From Escherichia coli (GTDB lineage Bacteria > Pseudomonadota > Gammaproteobacteria > Enterobacterales > Enterobacteriaceae), in the NCBI RefSeq assembly GCF_009931435.1, contig NZ_CP043414.1: DNA of 64,000 nucleotides. The stretch is one strand, 5' to 3'. The notes below the pieces were generated by a model that saw nothing but the letters and a program-made list of their open reading frames with translations, was not told the origin of the DNA and did no database searches. Of this stretch, positions 2,352 to 34,990 are shown one piece after another (the first letter of the stretch is position 1; every line of letters begins with the position of its first letter). The position numbers were made by a program, and so were the translations under genes.

Positions 2352-3140
2352 ATGCAAACGATTATCCGCGTCGAACAACTGAGCAAAACCTTCAATCAGC
2401 ATCAGGCGCTGCACGCGGTTGATCTGAACATTCATCACGGTGAAATGGTGGCTCTGCTTGGGCCGTCGGGTTCCGGCAAATCCACCCTTTTACGTCACTT
2501 AAGCGGCCTGATTGTCGGCGATAAAAAGCCAGAATGCCGCGTCGAACTGCTGGGCCGCACCGTCCAGCAAAATGGCCGCCTGGCCCGCGATATCCGCAAA
2601 AGCCGCGCCAACACCGGCTACATCTTCCAACAATTCAACCTGGTGAATCGCCTGAGCGTACTGGAGAACGTGCTGATTGGCGCGCTCGGCAGCACGCCGT
2701 TCTGGCGTACCTGTTTTAGCTGGTTCACCCGCGAGCAGAAACAGCGTGCGTTACAGGCACTGACTCGCGTTGGGATGGTGCACTTTGCCCATCAGCGCGT
2801 TTCCACGCTCTCCGGCGGCCAGCAGCAGCGTGTGGCGATAGCCCGTGCGCTGATGCAGCAGGCGAAGGTGATTCTGGCCGATGAACCCATCGCCTCGCTG
2901 GACCCGGAATCGGCCCGCATCGTGATGGATACCCTGCGCGACATCAACCAGAACGACGGCATCACCGTGGTGGTGACGCTGCATCAGGTGGATTACGCCC
3001 TGCGCTACTGCGAACGCATCGTCGCCCTGCGCCAGGGGCACGTCTTCTACGACGGCAGCAGCCAACAGTTTGATAACGAACGTTTTGACCATCTCTACCG
3101 CAGCATTAACCGCGTCGAAGAGAACGCGAAAGCTGCCTGA
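2352..3140 (+). CDS. phnC: Phosphonate ABC transporter ATP-binding protein, 262 aa
   Basis: ORF track; Walker [10 protein letters not shown] and ABC signature LSGGQQQR. Confidence 0.95.
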
Positions 3141-3164
3141 CATCCCCATCATTGAGGAAAACGA

Positions 3165-4181
3165 ATGAACGCTAAGATAATTGCCTCGCTGGCCTTCACC
3201 AGCATGTTCAGCCTCAGCACCCTGTTCAGCCCGGCACACGCCGAAGAGCAGGAAAAGGCGCTGAATTTCGGCATTATTTCAACGGAATCACAGCAAAACC
3301 TGAAACCGCAATGGACGCCTTTCCTGCAAGATATGGAGAAGAAACTGGGCGTAAAGGTCAACGCCTTCTTTGCTCCGGACTACGCGGGCATTATCCAGGG
3401 GATGCGCTTCAATAAAGTGGATATCGCCTGGTACGGCAATCTGTCGGCGATGGAAGCGGTGGATCGCGCCAACGGTCAGGTCTTCGCCCAGACGGTCGCG
3501 GCGGATGGATCGCCGGGTTACTGGAGCGTGTTGATCGTCAACAAAGACAGTCCGATCAACAACCTGAACGATCTGCTGGCGAAGCGTAAAGATCTCACCT
3601 TTGGCAATGGCGATCCTAACTCCACCTCTGGCTTCCTCGTCCCCGGCTACTACGTCTTCGCCAAAAACAATATCTCCGCCAGCGACTTCAAGCGCACCGT
3701 CAACGCCGGGCATGAAACCAACGCGCTGGCCGTCGCCAACAAGCAGGTGGATGTGGCGACCAACAACACCGAGAACCTCGACAAGCTGAAAACCTCCGCA
3801 CCGGAGAAGCTCAAAGAACTGAAGGTGATCTGGAAATCGCCGCTGATCCCAGGCGATCCGATCGTCTGGCGCAAAAATCTTTCCGAAACCACCAAAGACA
3901 AGATCTACGACTTCTTTATGAACTACGGCAAAACGCCGGAAGAGAAAGCGGTGCTGGAGCGCCTGGGCTGGGCCCCGTTCCGCGCCTCCAGCGACCTGCA
4001 ACTGGTGCCAATTCGCCAGCTCGCGCTGTTTAAAGAGATGCAGGGCGTGAAAGGCAATAAGGGACTGAATGAGCAGGACAAGCTGGCAAAAACCACCGCC
4101 ATTCAGGCGCAACTGGATGATTTGGACCGCCTGAACAACGCGTTAAGCGCAATGAGTTCGGTGAGTAAAGCGGTGCAGTAA
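3165..4181 (+). CDS. phnD: Periplasmic phosphonate-binding protein, 338 aa
   Basis: ORF track; signal-peptide-like N-terminus ending AHA; fits the PhnD family and operon position. Confidence 0.95.
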   Translation: MNAKIIASLAFTSMFSLSTLFSPAHAEEQEKALNFGIISTESQQNLKPQWTPFLQDMEKKLGVKVNAFFAPDYAGIIQGMRFNKVDIAWYGNLSAMEAVDRANGQVFAQTVAADGSPGYWSVLIVNKDSPINNLNDLLAKRKDLTFGNGDPNSTSGFLVPGYYVFAKNNISASDFKRTVNAGHETNALAVANKQVDVATNNTENLDKLKTSAPEKLKELKVIWKSPLIPGDPIVWRKNLSETTKDKIYDFFMNYGKTPEEKAVLERLGWAPFRASSDLQLVPIRQLALFKEMQGVKGNKGLNEQDKLAKTTAIQAQLDDLDRLNNALSAMSSVSKAVQ

Positions 4182-4195
4182 TGTGCTCGATCGGT

Positions 4196-4294
4196 CCCCT
4201 CTCCCTTGAGGGAGAGGGTTAGGGTGAGGGGGGAAATACGCACGCTGATGCCCTCACCCCGGCCCTCTCCTACAGGGAGAGGGAGAAAACATTA
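4196..4294. repeat. GC-rich inverted pair of boxC-like palindromic units in the phnD-phnE spacer
   Basis: CCCTCTCCC-TTGA-GGGAGAGGG-TTAGGGTGAGGGG followed by its near reverse complement GCCCTCACCCCGGCCCTCTCC-TACA-GGGAGAGGG. Confidence 0.7.
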
Positions 4295-4307
4295 AACGGA
4301 GCCAAAC

Positions 4308-5087
4308 ATGCAAACCATCACCATCGCCCCACCCAAGCGCAGCTGGTTCTCGATCTTCAGCTGGGCCGTTGTTCTCGCCGTACTGGTCGTCTCGTGGCAG
4401 GGCGCGGAAATGGCCCCGCTCACGCTGATTAAAGACGGCGGCAACATGGCGACGTTCGCCGCCGACTTCTTCCCGCCCGATTTCAGCCAGTGGCAGGATT
4501 ACCTCACCGAAATGGCCGTCACGCTGCAAATCGCCGTCTGGGGCACTGCGCTGGCAGTCGTTCTCTCCATCCCCTTCGGCCTGATGAGCGCCGAAAACCT
4601 GGTGCCGTGGTGGGTTTACCAGCCCGTTCGCCGCCTGATGGACGCCTGCCGCGCCATTAACGAGATGGTCTTCGCCATGCTGTTCGTGGTCGCCGTCGGT
4701 CTCGGTCCGTTCGCTGGCGTACTGGCGCTGTTTATCCACACCACCGGCGTGCTCTCCAAACTGCTTTCCGAAGCGGTAGAAGCAATTGAACCCGGCCCGG
4801 TGGAAGGTATTCGCGCCACTGGTGCCAACAAGCTCGAAGAGATCCTCTATGGCGTGCTGCCGCAGGTGATGCCGCTGCTGATCTCCTACTCCCTCTATCG
4901 CTTCGAATCCAACGTCCGTTCGGCCACCGTTGTTGGCATGGTCGGCGCTGGCGGGATCGGCGTCACGCTGTGGGAAGCGATTCGCGGTTTCCAGTTCCAG
5001 CAAACCTGCGCCCTGATGGTGCTGATTATCGTCACGGTCAGCCTGCTGGATTTCCTCTCTCAACGGTTGCGTAAGCACTTTATCTGA
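4308..5087 (+). CDS. phnE: Phosphonate ABC transporter permease, intact 259-aa frame
   Basis: Single uninterrupted ORF in the track (4308..5087); binding-protein-dependent permease features. Confidence 0.9.
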
Positions 5088-5107
5088 TAAGCGAGGCATT
5101 GATAGCT

Positions 5108-5833
5108 ATGCACTTGTCTACACATCCGACCAGCTACCCAACACGCTATCAGGAGATAGCCGCAAAACTTGAGCAGGAGCTTCGTCAACACTACCGCTGC
5201 GGCGACTATCTTCCCGCCGAGCATCAACTGGCGGCACGCTTTGAGGTGAATCGCCACACCCTGCGCCGCGCCATCGACCAACTGGTGGAAAAAGGCTGGG
5301 TACAGCGCCGTCAGGGCGTCGGCGTGCTGGTGCTGATGCGCCCGTTCGATTACCCGCTCAACGCCCAGGCGCGTTTTAGCCAGAACCTGCTGGATCAGGG
5401 TAGCCATCCCACCAGCGAAAAACTGCTGTCGGTGCTGCGCCCGGCCTCCGGCCACGTCGCTGACGCGCTGGGGATAACCGAGGGCGAGAACGTTATCCAC
5501 CTGCGCACCCTGCGTCGGGTCAACGGCGTCGCACTCTGTTTAATCGACCACTACTTTGCGGACCTCACTCTCTGGCCGACGCTGCAACGCTTCGACAGCG
5601 GCTCGCTGCACGATTTTTTGCACGAGCAAACGGGAATTGCGCTGCGCCGCAGCCAGACGCGGATCAGCGCCCGCCGCGCCCAGGCCAAAGAGTGCCAGCG
5701 TCTTGAAATTCCGAATATGTCGCCGCTGCTGTGCGTGCGCACCCTTAACCACCGTGACGGTGAAAGCAGCCCGGCGGAGTACTCCGTCAGCCTGACGCGC
5801 GCCGACATGATTGAATTCACCATGGAGCACTGA
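5108..5833 (+). CDS. phnF: GntR-family transcriptional regulator of the phn operon, 241 aa
   Basis: ORF track 5099..5833 starts at TTG; first ATG at 5108 gives MHLSTHPTSYPTRYQEIAAKLEQELR with a GntR-type HTH. Confidence 0.9.
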   Translation: MHLSTHPTSYPTRYQEIAAKLEQELRQHYRCGDYLPAEHQLAARFEVNRHTLRRAIDQLVEKGWVQRRQGVGVLVLMRPFDYPLNAQARFSQNLLDQGSHPTSEKLLSVLRPASGHVADALGITEGENVIHLRTLRRVNGVALCLIDHYFADLTLWPTLQRFDSGSLHDFLHEQTGIALRRSQTRISARRAQAKECQRLEIPNMSPLLCVRTLNHRDGESSPAEYSVSLTRADMIEFTMEH

Positions 5834-6286
5834 ATGCACGCAGATACCGCGACCCGCCAGCACTGGATGTCCGTGCTGGCGCACAGCCAACCGGCTGAAC
5901 TGGCTAACCGCCTTAAAGCGCTAAACATCACCGCCGACTATGACATGATCCGCGCCGCCGAAACCGGCCTGGTACAGATTCAGGCGCGAATGGGTGGCAC
6001 CGGCGAACGCTTTTTTGCTGGCGACGCTACGCTCACCCGCGCCGCTGTACGCCTTACTGACGGCACGCTCGGCTACAGCTGGGTGCTGGGGCGCGACAAA
6101 CAGCACGCCGAACGCTGCGCGCTGATTGACGCGCTGATGCAGCAATCTCGCCACTTTCAAAACTTATCAGAAACCCTTATTGCCCCGCTGGACGCTGACC
6201 GTATGGCACGCATTGCCGCACGCCAGGCCGAAGTGAACGCCAGTCGGGTCGACTTCTTTACGATGGTTCGCGGAGACAACGCATGA
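5834..6286 (+). CDS. phnG: C-P lyase core complex subunit PhnG, 150 aa
   Basis: ORF track; operon position; start immediately after the phnF stop. Confidence 0.9.
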
Positions 6287-6867
6287 CCCTGGAAACCGCT
6301 TTTATGCTTCCCGTGCAGGATGCCCAGCACAGTTTTCGTCGCCTGTTAAAGGCCATGAGCGAGCCGGGCGTGATTGTCGCCCTGCATCAACTCAAACGCG
6401 GCTGGCAGCCGCTGAATATCGCCACCACCAGCGTGCTGCTGACGCTGGCCGATAACGACACGCCGGTGTGGCTTTCTGCGCCATTAAGTAACGATATCGT
6501 CAGCCAGAGCCTGCGTTTTCATACCAACGCGCCGCTGGTCAATCAGCCGGAACAGGCGACCTTCGCAGTGACGGATGAGGCGATTGCCAGCGAGCAGCTC
6601 AACGCCCTTTCCATCGGCACCGCCGTTGCGCCGGAAGCCGGTGCGACGTTGATTTTACAGGTCACCAGCCTGAGCGGCGGACGCATGCTGCGCCTCACCG
6701 GCGCGGGTATTGCCGAAGAACGGATGATCGCCCCGCAACTGCCGGAGTGCATTCTGCACGAACTCACCGAGCGCCCGCACCCGTTCCCGCTCGGCATCGA
6801 CCTGATCCTGACCTGCGGCGAGCGCCTGCTGGCTATCCCGCGAACCACTCATGTGGAGGTGTGCTGA
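6283..6867 (+). CDS. phnH: C-P lyase core complex subunit PhnH, 194 aa
   Basis: ORF track; ATGA overlap with the phnG stop. Confidence 0.9.
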
Positions 6868-7931
6868 TGTACGTTGCCGTGAAAGGGGGCGAAAAGGCGA
6901 TCGACGCCGCCCACGCCCTGCAAGAGAGCCGACGCCGGGGCGATACTGATTTGCCTGAACTGAGCGTCGCCCAGATTGAACAGCAGCTTAATCTCGCGGT
7001 GGATCGCGTGATGACCGAAGGCGGCATTGCCGACCGTGAACTGGCGGCACTAGCGCTGAAACAGGCCAGCGGCGATAACGTTGAAGCGATTTTCCTGTTG
7101 CGCGCCTACCGCACGACGCTGGCAAAGCTGGCGGTGAGCGAGCCGCTCGACACCACCGAGATGCGGCTCGAACGCCGTATTTCGGCGGTTTATAAAGACA
7201 TTCCCGGCGGCCAGTTGCTTGGCCCGACCTACGACTACACCCATCGCCTGCTCGATTTCACCCTGCTGGCGAATGGCGAAGCGCCGACGCTGACCACCGC
7301 CGACAGCGAGCAAGCCCCATCGCCGCACGTTTTCAGCCTGCTGGCGCGTCAGGGGCTGGCGAAGTTTGAAGAGGATAGCGGCGCACAGCCGGACGACATC
7401 ACCCGCACGCCGCCGGTTTACCCCTGCTCACGTTCTTCCCGTTTGCAGCAGCTCATGCGCGGAGACGAAGGCTATTTGCTGGCGCTGGCCTACTCCACCC
7501 AGCGTGGTTACGGACGCAATCACCCGTTCGCAGGCGAAATCCGCAGTGGCTATATCGACGTGTCTATTGTGCCGGAAGAGCTGGGATTTGCGGTGAACAT
7601 CGGCGAACTGCTGATGACCGAGTGTGAAATGGTCAACGGTTTTATCGACCCGCCGGATGAGCCGCCGCACTTCACGCGCGGCTACGGGCTGGTGTTCGGC
7701 ATGAGCGAGCGCAAAGCGATGGCAATGGCGCTGGTTGACCGCGCTCTACAAGCCCCGGAGTACGGCGAGCACGCGACAGGCCCGGCGCAGGATGAAGAGT
7801 TCGTGCTGGCGCATGCCGACAACGTCGAAGCCGCAGGCTTTGTCTCGCACCTCAAACTCCCGCACTACGTCGATTTCCAGGCCGAACTGGAGCTACTCAA
7901 ACGTCTGCAACAGGAGCAGAACCATGGCTAA
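6867..7931 (+). CDS. phnI: C-P lyase core complex subunit PhnI, 354 aa
   Basis: ORF track frame 6747..7931; I place the start at ATG 6867 ([18 protein letters not shown]), overlapping the phnH stop by one base (TGATG). Confidence 0.9.
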   Translation: MYVAVKGGEKAIDAAHALQESRRRGDTDLPELSVAQIEQQLNLAVDRVMTEGGIADRELAALALKQASGDNVEAIFLLRAYRTTLAKLAVSEPLDTTEMRLERRISAVYKDIPGGQLLGPTYDYTHRLLDFTLLANGEAPTLTTADSEQAPSPHVFSLLARQGLAKFEEDSGAQPDDITRTPPVYPCSRSSRLQQLMRGDEGYLLALAYSTQRGYGRNHPFAGEIRSGYIDVSIVPEELGFAVNIGELLMTECEMVNGFIDPPDEPPHFTRGYGLVFGMSERKAMAMALVDRALQAPEYGEHATGPAQDEEFVLAHADNVEAAGFVSHLKLPHYVDFQAELELLKRLQQEQNHG

Positions 7932-8769
7932 TCTGAGCGGCTACAACTTTGCCTACCTCGACGAGCAGACCAAACGTATGATCCGCCGCGCCATCTTAAA
8001 AGCGGTGGCGATCCCCGGTTATCAGGTGCCGTTTGGCGGGCGCGAGATGCCGATGCCATACGGCTGGGGAACTGGTGGTATCCAGCTTACCGCCAGCGTG
8101 ATTGGCGAAAGCGACGTGTTGAAGGTGATTGACCAGGGCGCGGATGACACCACCAACGCCGTATCAATTCGCAACTTTTTCAAGCGCGTGACCGGGGTAA
8201 ACACCACTGAACGTACGGATGATGCGACGCTTATCCAGACGCGCCACCGCATCCCCGAAACGCCGCTGACCGAAGATCAGATCATTATTTTCCAGGTGCC
8301 GATCCCCGAACCGCTGCGCTTTATCGAGCCGCGCGAAACGGAGACCCGCACTATGCACGCGCTGGAGGAGTACGGCGTGATGCAGGTGAAACTGTATGAA
8401 GATATCGCCCGCTTCGGTCATATCGCCACCACCTACGCCTATCCGGTGAAGGTGAACGGACGCTACGTAATGGACCCATCGCCGATCCCGAAATTTGATA
8501 ACCCGAAAATGGACATGATGCCCGCCCTGCAACTGTTTGGCGCGGGGCGCGAGAAGCGTATTTATGCGGTGCCGCCGTTTACCCGCGTGGAAAGCCTCGA
8601 TTTCGACGATCATCCGTTCACCGTTCAGCAGTGGGATGAACCCTGCGCCATCTGCGGATCGACCCACAGCTATCTCGATGAAGTGGTGCTGGATGACGCC
8701 GGAAACCGCATGTTTGTCTGTTCCGATACCGATTATTGCCGCCAACAGAGCGAGGCGAAAAGCCAATGA
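7924..8769 (+). CDS. phnJ: C-P bond-cleaving enzyme PhnJ, 281 aa
   Basis: ORF track frame 7735..8769; start at ATG 7924 (MANLSGYNFAYLDEQTKRMIRRAILKAV); C-terminal cysteine cluster CAICGS..C..C. Confidence 0.9.
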   Translation: MANLSGYNFAYLDEQTKRMIRRAILKAVAIPGYQVPFGGREMPMPYGWGTGGIQLTASVIGESDVLKVIDQGADDTTNAVSIRNFFKRVTGVNTTERTDDATLIQTRHRIPETPLTEDQIIIFQVPIPEPLRFIEPRETETRTMHALEEYGVMQVKLYEDIARFGHIATTYAYPVKVNGRYVMDPSPIPKFDNPKMDMMPALQLFGAGREKRIYAVPPFTRVESLDFDDHPFTVQQWDEPCAICGSTHSYLDEVVLDDAGNRMFVCSDTDYCRQQSEAKSQ

Positions 8770-9524
8770 ATCAACCGTTACTTTCGGTCAATAACCTGAC
8801 CCACCTCTACGCACCGGGCAAAGGCTTCAGCGACGTTTCTTTTGATTTATGGCCGGGGGAAGTGCTGGGCATCGTCGGGGAATCCGGTTCCGGGAAGACC
8901 ACGCTGCTGAAATCAATCTCCGCGCGCCTGACGCCGCAGCAGGGGGAGATTCGCTATGAAAACCGTTCCCTCTATGGCATGAGCGAAGCCGACCGCCGCC
9001 GTTTACTGCGCACCGAATGGGGCGTGGTACATCAGCATCCGCTCGACGGCCTGCGTCGCCAGGTCTCGGCAGGCGGCAATATCGGCGAACGGCTGATGGC
9101 GACCGGGGCGCGTCATTACGGCGATATTCGCGCCACCGCGCAGAAGTGGCTGGAAGAGGTGGAGATTCCCGCCAACCGGATCGACGACCTGCCGACCACT
9201 TTTTCCGGCGGTATGCAGCAGCGTTTGCAGATTGCCCGCAACCTGGTGACGCATCCGAAGCTGGTGTTTATGGATGAACCGACCGGCGGGCTGGATGTAT
9301 CAGTGCAAGCGCGCCTGCTCGATCTGCTGCGCGGTCTGGTGGTGGAGCTGAACCTGGCGGTGGTGATTGTCACCCACGATCTGGGCGTCGCCCGCCTGCT
9401 GGCGGACCGTTTGCTGGTGATGAAGCAAGGGCAAGTGGTGGAGAGTGGGTTAACCGACCGCGTGCTCGACGACCCGCATCACCCGTATACCCAGCTGCTG
9501 GTGTCATCGGTTTTGCAGAATTGA
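8766..9524 (+). CDS. phnK: ABC-type ATPase PhnK, 252 aa
   Basis: ORF track frame 8736..9524; start at ATG 8766 (MNQPLLSVNNLTHLY); Walker A GESGSGKTT. Confidence 0.9.
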   Translation: MNQPLLSVNNLTHLYAPGKGFSDVSFDLWPGEVLGIVGESGSGKTTLLKSISARLTPQQGEIRYENRSLYGMSEADRRRLLRTEWGVVHQHPLDGLRRQVSAGGNIGERLMATGARHYGDIRATAQKWLEEVEIPANRIDDLPTTFSGGMQQRLQIARNLVTHPKLVFMDEPTGGLDVSVQARLLDLLRGLVVELNLAVVIVTHDLGVARLLADRLLVMKQGQVVESGLTDRVLDDPHHPYTQLLVSSVLQN

Positions 9525-9529
9525 GCCTT

Positions 9530-9690
9530 GCTTGTGTCGGGTGGCGCTGCGCTTACCCGACCTACGGTACATGTAGGCCGGATAAGGCGTAGCCGCCATC
9601 CGGCTTATCAGGCCTACAAAACCATCGTAATACATTGATATTGATTCATTTGTAGGCCGGATAAGGCGCAGCCGCCATCCGGCAAAAACA
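9530..9690. repeat. REP/BIME cluster inside the phn operon, between phnK and phnL
   Basis: GTAGGCCGGATAAGGCG(T/C)AGCCGCCATCCGGC units in inverted orientation. Confidence 0.8.
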
Positions 9691-9703
9691 CGAAGAGGCC
9701 AAA

Positions 9704-10384
9704 ATGATCCGCGTCGAAAACGTCAGTAAAACCTTCATCCTGCACCAACAAAACGGCGTGCGCCTGCCCGTCTTACAACGCGCCTCGCTCACCGTCAACG
9801 CGGGCGAATGCGTGGTGCTCCACGGCCATTCCGGCAGCGGCAAATCAACCCTGCTGCGCTCGCTGTACGCTAACTATCTGCCCGACGAAGGGCAAATTCA
9901 GATCAAACATGGTGACGAGTGGGTAGACCTGGTCACCGCGCCAGCGCGCAAAGTGGTGGAAATCCGCAAAACCACCGTCGGCTGGGTGAGCCAGTTTCTG
10001 CGGGTCATCCCGCGTATTTCGGCGCTGGAAGTGGTAATGCAGCCGCTGCTCGATACCGGCGTTCCGCGTGAAGCCTGCGCCGCTAAAGCCGCCCGTCTGC
10101 TCACCCGCCTGAACGTGCCGGAACGTCTGTGGCACCTGGCGCCATCGACCTTCTCCGGCGGCGAACAGCAGCGCGTCAACATCGCGCGCGGCTTTATCGT
10201 CGATTACCCCATTCTGCTGCTCGACGAACCTACTGCCTCGCTGGACGCCAAAAACAGCGCCGCGGTGGTGGAACTGATCCGCGAAGCTAAAACCCGCGGC
10301 GCAGCCATCGTCGGCATCTTCCACGACGAAGCCGTACGCAATGACGTCGCCGACCGCCTCCACCCAATGGGAGCCTCTGCATGA
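9704..10384 (+). CDS. phnL: ABC-type ATPase PhnL, 226 aa
   Basis: ORF track; Walker [10 protein letters not shown]. Confidence 0.9.
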
Positions 10385-11517
10385 TTATCAATAACGTCAA
10401 ACTGGTGCTGGAAAACGAAGTGGTACACGGTTCGCTGGAGGTGCAGGACGGCGAAATTCGCGCCTTTGCCGAAAGCCAGAGCCGCCTGCCAGAAGCGATG
10501 GACGGCGAAGGTGGCTGGCTGCTGCCGGGGCTGATTGAGCTGCATACCGACAACCTCGATAAATTCTTCACTCCGCGCCCGAAAGTGGACTGGCCTGCCC
10601 ACTCAGCGATGAGCAGCCACGACGCGCTGATGGTGGCGAGCGGCATCACCACGGTGCTGGATGCCGTGGCGATTGGCGACGTGCGCGACGGCGGCGATCG
10701 GCTGGAGAATCTGGAGAAGATGATCAACGCCATCGAAGAGACGCAGAAACGCGGGGTCAACCGCGCCGAGCACCGTCTGCACCTGCGCTGTGAACTGCCG
10801 CATCACACTACGCTGCCGCTGTTTGAAAAACTGGTGCAGCGCGAGCCGGTCACGCTGGTGTCGCTGATGGACCACTCGCCGGGCCAGCGCCAGTTCGCCA
10901 ATCGCGAGAAGTATCGCGAATATTACCAGGGCAAATACTCGCTCACCGATGCGCAGATGCAGCAGTACGAAGAGGAACAACTGGCGCTTGCCGCACGCTG
11001 GTCGCAGCCGAATCGCGAAACCATCGCCGCAATATGCCGCGCGCGACAAATTGCCCTCGCCAGCCACGATGATGCTACGCACGAGCACGTTGCCGAATCC
11101 CACCAGCTTGGCAGCGTAATCGCCGAATTTCCCACCACGTTCGAAGCGGCGGAAGCTTCGCGCAAGCATGGCATGAATGTATTGATGGGCGCGCCGAATA
11201 TTGTGCGCGGCGGTTCGCACTCCGGCAACGTGGCGGCAAGCGAACTGGCACAGCTTGGCCTGCTGGATATCCTCTCTTCCGACTACTACCCCGCCAGCCT
11301 GCTCGATGCGGCATTTCGCGTCGCCGATGACGAGAGCAACCGCTTTACGCTGCCGCAGGCGGTGAAGCTGGTGACTAAAAATCCGGCGCAGGCGCTTAAT
11401 CTTCAGGATCGCGGGGTGATTGGCGAGGGCAAACGCGCCGACCTGGTGCTGGCGCATCGCAAGGGCAACCACATTCATATCGATCACGTCTGGCGTCAGG
11501 GTAAAAGGGTGTTCTGA
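10381..11517 (+). CDS. phnM: Amidohydrolase-family phosphonate metabolism enzyme PhnM, 378 aa
   Basis: ORF track; ATGA overlap with phnL; metal-dependent hydrolase family. Confidence 0.9.
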
Positions 11518-12074
11518 TGACGGGAAAACTGATTTGGTTAATGGGGGCCTCTGGCTCCGGAAAAGACAGTCTGTTGACGGAACTCCGCCAGCGGGAACAA
11601 ACTCAGCTACTGGTAGCGCATCGCTACATCACGCGCGCCGCCAGCGCCGGAAGTGAAAACCATATCGCCCTGAGCGAGCAGGAGTTTTTTACCCGCGCGG
11701 GGCAGAACCTTCTGGCCTTAAGCTGGCACGCCAACGGCCTGTATTATGGCATCGGCGTCGAGATTGACCTCTGGCTACACGCCGGATTCGACGTGGTGGT
11801 CAACGGCTCACGCGCGCATTTGCCGCAGGCGCGGGCGCGCTATCAATCGGCTCTGCTGCCTATCTGTTTACAGGTGTCACCGGAGATCCTGCGCCAGCGT
11901 CTGGAAAACCGTGGTCGTGAAAATGCCAGTGAAATTAACGCCCGGCTGGCGCGCGCTGCCCGCTATACTCCTCAGGATTGTCTTACGCTCAATAATGACG
12001 GCAGCCTGCGCCAGTCGGTCGACAAGCTGCTGACGCTGATTCATCAGAAGGAGAAACACCATGCCTGCTTGTGA
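11517..12074 (+). CDS. phnN: Ribose 1,5-bisphosphate phosphokinase PhnN, 185 aa
   Basis: ORF track; P-loop [14 protein letters not shown] overlap with phnM. Confidence 0.9.
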
Positions 12075-12495
12075 GCTTCGTCCGGCCACGCAGTACGACA
12101 CCGACGCGGTTTACGCGCTGATTTGTGAGCTAAAACAGGCGGAGTTTGACCACCATGCGTTTCGCGTGGGCTTTAACGCCAACCTGCGCGACCCGAACAT
12201 GCGCTACCATCTGGCGCTGCTGGAAGGCGAAGTTGTCGGCATGATCGGCCTGCATTTGCAGTTTCATCTGCATCATGTCAACTGGATCGGCGAAATTCAG
12301 GAACTGGTGGTGATGCCGCAGGCGCGCGGTCTGAACGTCGGCAGTAAATTACTGGCATGGGCCGAAGAAGAAGCCCGCCAGGCCGGGGCCGAAATGACCG
12401 AGCTTTCCACCAACGTCAAGCGCCACGACGCGCACCGTTTCTATCTGCGCGAAGGCTACGAGCAGAGCCACTTCCGCTTCACCAAGGCGCTGTAA
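12061..12495 (+). CDS. phnO: Aminoalkylphosphonate N-acetyltransferase PhnO (GNAT family), 144 aa
   Basis: ORF track; 14-nt overlap with the phnN 3' end. Confidence 0.9.
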
Positions 12496-12496
12496 C

Positions 12497-13255
12497 ATGA
12501 GCCTGACCCTCACACTTACTGGCACTGGCGGCGCACAGGGTGTTCCCGCATGGGGCTGTGAGTGCGCGGCCTGCGCCAGAGCGCGGCGCTCACCGCAGTA
12601 TCGCCGCCAGCCATGCAGCGGCGTCGTGAAGTTTAACGACGCGATCACCCTGATCGACGCCGGACTGCACGATCTCGCCGATCGCTGGTCGCCCGGATCG
12701 TTCCAGCAGTTTTTGCTGACGCACTACCATATGGATCACGTGCAGGGGCTGTTTCCGCTGCGCTGGGGCGTGGGCGATTCGATCCCGGTCTACGGCCCGC
12801 CGGATGAACAGGGCTGCGACGATCTGTTTAAACATCCGGGCCTGCTTGATTTCAGCCACACGGTGGAGCCATTTGTGATGTTTGATTTGCAGGGATTACA
12901 GGTCACGCCGCTGCCGCTCAACCATTCGAAACTCACTTTCGGCTATCTACTGGAAACGGCACATAGCCGGGTGGCGTGGCTGTCTGACACCGCAGGCCTG
13001 CCGGAAAAAACGGTGAAATTTTTATGCAATAATCAGCCACAGGTAATGGTGATTGATTGCTGCCACCCACCGCGCGCGAATTCGCCACGCAATCACTGTG
13101 ATTTAAACACCGTGCTGGCGCTGAATGAAGTTATCCGCTCGCCGTGCGTGGTTCTGACACATATCAGCCATCAGTTTGATGCGTGGCTGATGGAGAACAT
13201 ACTGCCGTCAGGGTTTGAGGCGGGGTTTGATGGGATGGAGATTGGGGTGGAGTGA
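12497..13255 (+). CDS. phnP: Metallo-beta-lactamase-fold phosphodiesterase PhnP, 252 aa
   Basis: ORF track; HxHxDH motif (HYHMDH). Confidence 0.9.
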
Positions 13256-24398: not shown

Positions 24399-24450
24399 TG
24401 TAGGCCTGATAAGACGCGGCAAGCGTCGCATCAGGCATCCACACATTGCC
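24399..24450. repeat. REP element between yjcO and gltP
   Basis: TGTAGGCCTGATAAGACGCG...CGTCGCATCAGGC palindromic unit. Confidence 0.75.
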
Positions 24451-34865: not shown

Positions 34866-34990
34866 TTACCGGATGCGATCCGGGCAACAAGTCGGAAACG
34901 ATTTGTAGGCCTGATAAGACGCGACAGCGTCGCATCAGGCATTGATTGCCGGATGCGGCGTATAACGCCTTATCCAGCCTACATTCGGCG
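34866..34990. repeat. REP/BIME cluster between acs and yjcH
   Basis: CCGGATGCGATCCGGGC and TGTAGGCCTGATAAGACGCG...CGTCGCATCAGGC units. Confidence 0.75.

Follow-up and report, generated by a model that had tools for sequence, protein, structure and literature searches.

An atypical BIME at an apparent site of repeat turnover between phnK and phnL of an Escherichia coli phn operon

Why should a long, repeat-filled spacer interrupt the phn operon between phnK and phnL, and does it set different doses of the genes on its two sides? The window analyzed here, a stretch of 64,000 nucleotides of E. coli DNA, encodes a complete phnCDEFGHIJKLMNOP operon for phosphonate degradation on the plus strand at 2352-13255, the products of which share 95-99% identity with their K-12 counterparts. 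Both genes that border the spacer encode ABC ATPases of C-P lyase and score above the NCBIfam equivalog cut-offs, namely phnK (8766-9524, plus strand; TIGR02323, 410 bits; 99.2% amino-acid identity to K-12 PhnK) and phnL (9704-10384, plus strand; TIGR02324, 369 bits). The phnK stop codon, TGA, occupies 9522-9524 on the plus strand. The intercistronic spacer that follows (9525-9703, plus strand) measures 179 bp, not the roughly 160 bp of an initial sequence-only reading, although the repeats themselves (9536-9683) fall inside the interval of 9530-9690 which that reading had assigned to them. Reading the sequence locates a Shine-Dalgarno element, AGAGG (9694-9698, plus strand), 5 nt upstream of the phnL ATG, and phnL thus possesses a translation start of its own.

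The surrounding operon is tightly packed. The initial description of most neighboring phn genes as overlapping by 1-14 nt holds for seven of the 13 junctions (G/H, -4; H/I, -1; I/J, -8; J/K, -4; L/M, -4; M/N, -1; N/O, -14 nt), and two more abut (F/G, 0; O/P, +1 nt). It does not extend to the transporter part, where C/D, D/E and E/F are also gaps, of 24, 126 and 20 nt, respectively. The D/E gap, which contains another repeat, had been overlooked. The recognition of a REP/BIME cluster in the phnK-phnL gap was nonetheless right, and where at least two inverted REP units had been claimed, the spacer in fact holds three full units and one truncated unit.

These units are arranged in the order iREP-a, a 7-nt linker, REP-b, an iREP-c remnant, a 34-nt linker and REP-d. 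The inverse unit iREP-a (9536-9565, minus strand), recognized by alignment after reverse-complementing, reads ...CCCGACCTAC on the plus strand and ends in CTAC; its hairpin (-16.3 kcal/mol) begins 11 nt past the phnK stop codon, which ends at 9524, with the first paired base at 9536. The 7 nt read between this CTAC and the GTAG of REP-b (9566-9572) form the first linker. REP-b (9573-9604, plus strand), a y-type unit of sequence GTAGGCCGGATAAGGCGTAGCCGCCATCCGGC that begins with GTAGG and matches the REP 17-mer exactly, was assigned to direct-repeat family D1 and folds with -19.5 kcal/mol. Fused to its 3' arm is iREP-c (9601-9617, minus strand), a truncated z1-type unit found as a 17-mer match with two mismatches, of which the 3' arm, CTTATCAGGCCTAC, is the sole part present; strain RMDEC465 and the E. 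coli BIME-1 copies carry a full-length z1 iREP at this place. An L-type linker of BIME-1 follows (9618-9651, 34 nt); its counterparts in the fdhE-yiiF and exbD-yghA copies align with it. The cluster ends with a second y-type unit, REP-d (9652-9683, plus strand; -18.2 kcal/mol), which lies 79 bp downstream of REP-b and is 97% identical to it.

Each full unit has the hallmarks of a REP, namely a foldable imperfect palindrome of 30-40 nt, a GTAG foot and multiple extragenic copies; the conserved GTAG tetranucleotide is the foot of the REP palindrome (PMC3333891). In an alignment of all four spacer units with the other REPs of the window and with K-12 y and z2 units, GTAGG is invariant and a GATAAG..CG core is common to all. 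A search of the 64-kb window with the REP 17-mer GTAGGCCGGATAAGGCG, permitting up to three mismatches, returned eight matches against 0.11 expected, a count reached in no shuffle, and all eight are intergenic. The minimum free energy of the spacer RNA, -86 to -88 kcal/mol, corresponds to a z-score of -6.36, and no sequence among 200 shuffles equaled it. Within it, iREP-a and REP-b fold jointly into one 73-nt hairpin of -46.2 kcal/mol.

Since the spacer REPs alternate in orientation, they constitute a BIME, and the class of that BIME follows from its 3' half. The definitions of BIME-1, BIME-2 and atypical BIMEs are those of PMC3333891, in which BIME-1 (RIB/RIP) comprises a z1 and a y REP around a conserved L linker, often with an IHF site. 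We used a 75-nt query of arm, linker and arm and counted matches covering at least 80% of it, linker included; such BIME-1-type matches occur in 4944 of 5426 complete E. coli genomes, with a median of seven places per genome. The fdhE-yiiF and exbD-yghA copies align with the window along the z1 iREP, the L linker and the y REP, and the 3' half of the spacer (9601-9683), with its z1 arm, L linker of about 34 nt carrying an IHF-type motif, and y REP, is homologous to these genome-wide BIME-1 elements. The window unit departs from them in three ways. Its z1 unit lacks the 5' arm, it is fused to a further iREP/REP pair, and the corresponding 79-bp unit is tandemly duplicated in the related sequence CP087880.1, so that the cluster falls outside the single, non-tandem copies that typify BIME-1. 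For these reasons the cluster is an atypical (chimeric) BIME, in which a convergent iREP/REP pair precedes a BIME-1-type unit built from the z1 remnant, the L linker with its IHF consensus and the y-type REP-d.

The L linker raises the question of a role at the level of DNA, in which it would bind IHF, and BIMEs maybe gyrase, so as to serve as a nucleoid or supercoiling element in a long, strongly induced operon. An IHF consensus, TATCAATGTATTA, lies in the linker at 9628-9640 on the minus strand and matches WATCAANNNNTTR perfectly, RMDEC465 and both CP087880 copies retain the motif as TATCAACGTATTA, and the L linker of BIME-1 is often accompanied by an IHF site (PMC3333891). This is a consensus match alone, though, and the window holds nine such matches against 2.4 expected. 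The K-12-type and BoxC-type alleles described below, moreover, have no L linker, so the linker is not required for phn function. We regard a role of this kind as unlikely.

From its size alone, the gap might be suspected of housing an internal promoter that drives phnL-P, or else a classical intrinsic terminator at which a phnC-K transcript ends. A scan of both strands of 9300-9900 found neither a sigma-70-like promoter (-35 and -10 hexamers at 16-18 nt spacing) nor an intrinsic terminator (a G+C-rich hairpin followed by a U tract); the sequences directly 3' of the REPs are CTACGG, CTACAAAA and CAAAAAC. Under phosphate starvation, furthermore, the K-12 operon is one 14-gene unit (PMC3734233), and we give either signal next to no credence. 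Rfam returned noise matches only for the spacer apart from naRNA4 (RF02564), the REP325-derived nucleoid RNA, whose best score of 26.7 bits lies below the gathering threshold of 59.5; that resemblance is shared REP sequence only. No relevant report linking REP with phnK or phnL emerged from a literature search, and phnK has no entry in the supplementary material of PMC3734233, PMC12306157 or PMC3333891.

The sequence-only reading had proposed comparing the spacer among strains. A census of 5426 complete E. coli genomes assigns 4841 to a K-12-type spacer of 110 bp, made up of a y iREP, a 13-nt linker and a z2-like REP, and 546 to a BoxC-type spacer of about 176 bp, made up of an inverted BoxC/PIT/TMECO pair. 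RMDEC465 is the sole genome of the 5426 with a window-like spacer, the likeness there being in the 3' half. The K-12 MG1655 BIME resembles that of the window in its junction, its repeat family, a first unit that is an iREP soon past the phnK stop, and strong RNA folding. It differs in being BIME-2-like, with neither an L linker nor an IHF consensus, in having two REPs against the three and a remnant of the window, and in its 3' flank and the first 13 nt of phnL. With the K-12 spacer as query, the median number of matching places in an E. coli genome is 27.

The BoxC-type spacer belongs to another class of element altogether. BoxC, PIT and TMECO are names for intrastrand-triplex repeats (PMC4666352) whose sequence family, CCCTCTCCC..GGGAGAGGG..GGGTGAGGGG, is unrelated to REP; the inverted pair fills the same phnK-phnL gap and is equally structured as RNA. 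In the window, elements of this family occur in the phnD-phnE gap and not between phnK and phnL. That gap (4182-4307, 126 bp) contains an inverted BoxC/PIT/TMECO pair, CCCCTCTCCCTTGAGGGAGAGGGTTAGGGTGAGGGG and its partner; the K-12 phnD-phnE gap is only 54 nt long. K-12 also has a BoxC (TMECO no. 22) at 4314285-4314320, just past the 3' end of phnP (PMC4666352), and several repeat families therefore flank and interrupt phn across strains. In 2020CK-00188, the E. coli strain whose phn haplotype is closest, the coordinates agree with those of the window up to the phnK stop, and a BoxC pair then takes the place of the BIME.

An exact-protein look-up found one public record with an identical PhnL, CP087880.1, which is about 95% identical to the window at the nucleotide level and carries the window cluster with the 79-bp unit of iREP-c, L linker and REP-d in two copies. 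The start of phnL co-varies with the spacer allele: its first 13 nt encode MIRVE... in the window versus MINVQ... in K-12-type and BoxC-type alleles, with mismatches to both at positions 6, 7, 8, 12 and 13. The boundary of the allele consequently extends into phnL, and the allele, phnL start included, may have been imported. The corresponding 9704-9716 of the window matches RMDEC465, CP087880.1 and other Enterobacteriaceae. All of the spacer alleles are similarly structured as RNA (-0.41 to -0.55 kcal/mol per nt). The content of the spacer is thus not conserved, a result that weakens the idea of a dedicated function, and from these alignments the phnK-phnL junction appears to be a site of repeat turnover.

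The operon that surrounds the junction is itself heterogeneous. Identity to K-12 ranges from 89% to 99% per 300 nt of the phn operon; the closest E. coli haplotypes are 97.4-97.7% identical overall, and identity to the closest varies between 93% and 100% per 500 nt. The flanks of the operon show 98-99.6% identity, and 13300-38000 of the window, the yjcS-fdhF-acs-nrfE region, matches E. coli chromosomes at 98.3-98.5% identity. Judged by these profiles, the phn operon of the window (2352-13255) is a recombination mosaic and a divergent allele. A phnK-phnL query gives low identity to E. coli, and the best PhnL match among the matches listed comes from Pseudocitrobacter. An origin of the window outside Escherichia was considered and rejected, given flanking DNA that is 98.3-98.5% identical to E. 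coli and a divergence restricted to the phn allele. The phn operon of Pseudocitrobacter faecalis shares 92-93% DNA identity with that of the window, far above what is usual between genera; this value and the approximately 95% of CP087880.1 suggest horizontal exchange of phn between these lineages.

We next consider the junction beyond E. coli, among 80 species representatives in the matches listed, none of which is another Escherichia species. Among the species listed, the distance from phnK to phnL lies between -4 and 298 nt. Unstructured junctions of 7-9 nt occur in Leclercia, Citrobacter sp. FP75 and an Enterobacter metagenome-assembled genome (the bare 9-nt junction reads TAAGAGGCGAACATG), and many other species listed have 8-25 nt. 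Others of those listed carry one REP (E. cloacae, strain RIT691, Kluyvera), two REPs (C. werkmanii, Pluralibacter, Cedecea) or three REPs (E. asburiae), two Pseudomonas loci carry Pseudomonas-type REP pairs, and several Rhizobiales carry GC-rich palindromes. The upper extreme of the range belongs to P. faecalis DSM 27453, where a tandemly amplified BoxC-like array of 298 bp fills the junction (1203-1500 of locus L037). A metagenome scan with a lineage-specific 23-mer of the junction returned one unrelated chance match only.

In the 72 listed species with all junctions placeable, for which the J-K estimates are approximate, phnK and phnL overlap or abut (0 nt or less) in just one; the median distance is 26.5 nt, and 22 species have at least 50 nt. 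For phnL and phnM the corresponding figures are 35 of 72 and a median of 1 nt. Because K-L is almost never overlapping, unlike L-M, the K-L gap is best taken as ancestral, and we infer that lineage-specific palindromic repeats have repeatedly colonized it. By this comparison, K-L would be the sole junction of phnG-P that was ancestrally a gap and not an overlap.

Repeats that recur at one junction invite an explanation by selection. A stable RNA structure at K/L could have been selected to set phnC-K above phnL-P through decay or partial termination, with any palindromic family sufficing, which would explain the convergent filling of the gap. A structured repeat is present at K/L in 5388 of the 5388 E. 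coli genomes typed; independent lineage-specific palindromes occupy the junction in Enterobacteriaceae, Pseudomonas and Rhizobiales among the species listed; and in K-12 the coverage of the operon falls along its length, with a phnGHIJK sub-transcript in one heat-shock sample (PMC3734233). Yet the bare junctions of Leclercia, Citrobacter sp. FP75 and the Enterobacter genome, and the 8-25 nt of many species, speak against such selection. PhnK and PhnL, moreover, are both present as dimers in the mature complex, Phn(GHIJKL)2 (PMC9947105), and no stoichiometric step is therefore obviously needed between them. REPs, finally, populate intergenic gaps generally, so that the filling of the sole available gap is expected without selection. 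We consider a selected decoupling structure improbable. The fuller version of the idea, in which the junction is selected for some structured RNA or DNA element, REP/BIME, BoxC, Pseudomonas REPs and Rhizobiales palindromes are interchangeable in uncoupling PhnG-K from PhnL-P, and the alleles, with boundaries reaching to phnL codon 5, are recombining expression variants, has in our judgment a slim chance of being correct.

We favor instead, as the probable though by no means assured account, a turnover-prone passenger REP cluster in a permissive K-L gap, with generic and modest effects on RNA. REP-type repeats would settle, amplify and be swapped at this junction with no harm to coding sequence or translational coupling, and their toleration and exchange there make the cluster look like a passenger rather than a dedicated component of the operon. 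This is the most economical interpretation, given that unrelated families exchange at K-L within a single species and that some relatives have none. The point that weighs against a passenger is the presence of a structured repeat in all typed E. coli together with palindromes in unrelated phyla, which could reflect selection.

What might a passenger cluster do to the transcript? As part of the phnC-P mRNA, with which it would be co-transcribed, the cluster would block 3'-to-5' exonucleases through its hairpins (single units, -16 to -20 kcal/mol; a/b pair, -46) and stabilize upstream decay intermediates; those ending past phnK would persist longer than the phnL-P segment. Rho-dependent attenuation may also occur to some extent at the cluster, and phnL would be translated from its own Shine-Dalgarno sequence. 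The net outcome would be a modest polarity step at K/L at most. The intercistronic REPs of malE-malF and hisJ-hisQ are classical mRNA stabilizers with experimental support for differential stability. The phnK-phnL cluster, a putative stabilizer, resembles them in placing REP hairpins between cistrons of a polycistronic mRNA, downstream of genes expected to be more abundant.

The suggestion of the sequence-only reading, that the cluster acts as an mRNA stabilizer or partial terminator setting different doses of phnG-K and phnL-P, is accordingly plausible as a legitimate textbook inference, and the roles of REPs, among them mRNA stabilizer and attenuator, are summarized in PMC3333891 and PMC12306157. 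A stabilizer or attenuator role of this cluster is plausible as a generic property, not a conserved one; since related strains carry other repeats or none at K-L, any effect on expression is probably generic. K-12 RNA-seq under phosphate starvation describes one 14-gene transcript with coverage falling along the operon and no step at K/L, a pattern compatible with a modest effect there (PMC3734233).

The passenger account can also accommodate an effect on translation. The first hairpin, 11 nt past the phnK stop, lies within the 15 nt at which a REP may interfere with translation termination, and it may slow termination of PhnK translation. A stronger version of this effect, compatible with the favored reading, is a translational brake in which the hairpin would stall the ribosome, with mRNA cleavage, tmRNA tagging and reduced PhnK output as the consequences. 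PMC12306157 cites Liang, Rudd and Deutscher (2015) for the down-regulation of translation by REPs that lie fewer than 16 nt away from the stop codon, and in every REP-bearing member of the Enterobacteriaceae examined the first stem begins 4-13 nt past the phnK stop. The same source gives 260 of 496 E. coli REPs, about half, as this close to a stop codon in that earlier study, which makes the position at phnK typical, not special. We hold the brake to be possible but rather doubtful. Stabilization and stalling would oppose each other on PhnK, and the net effect is therefore unpredictable.

Enterobacterial operons have long been known to contain intercistronic REP/BIME clusters, and the phnK-phnL junction of K-12 provides one example; the window cluster is a known kind of element and of little importance alone. 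The junction is of wider interest as a natural allelic series, running from a BIME-1-like cluster through a BIME-2-like pair and a BoxC pair to a bare junction of 7-9 nt. It thereby offers a ready-made system for asking whether intercistronic repeats alter operon polarity, and it illustrates repeat turnover and recombination mosaicism within a catabolic operon.

The window contains further REPs outside the phn operon. A second BIME, composed of a y REP, a z2 iREP and a degenerate third unit, lies between yjdM and yjdN at 1571-1710, where K-12 has a far longer array with a 100-bp period and RMDEC465 has an IS621 insertion. A single z2-type REP is found at 24400-24436, and a head-to-head z2/y REP pair at 34905-34982, both intergenic.
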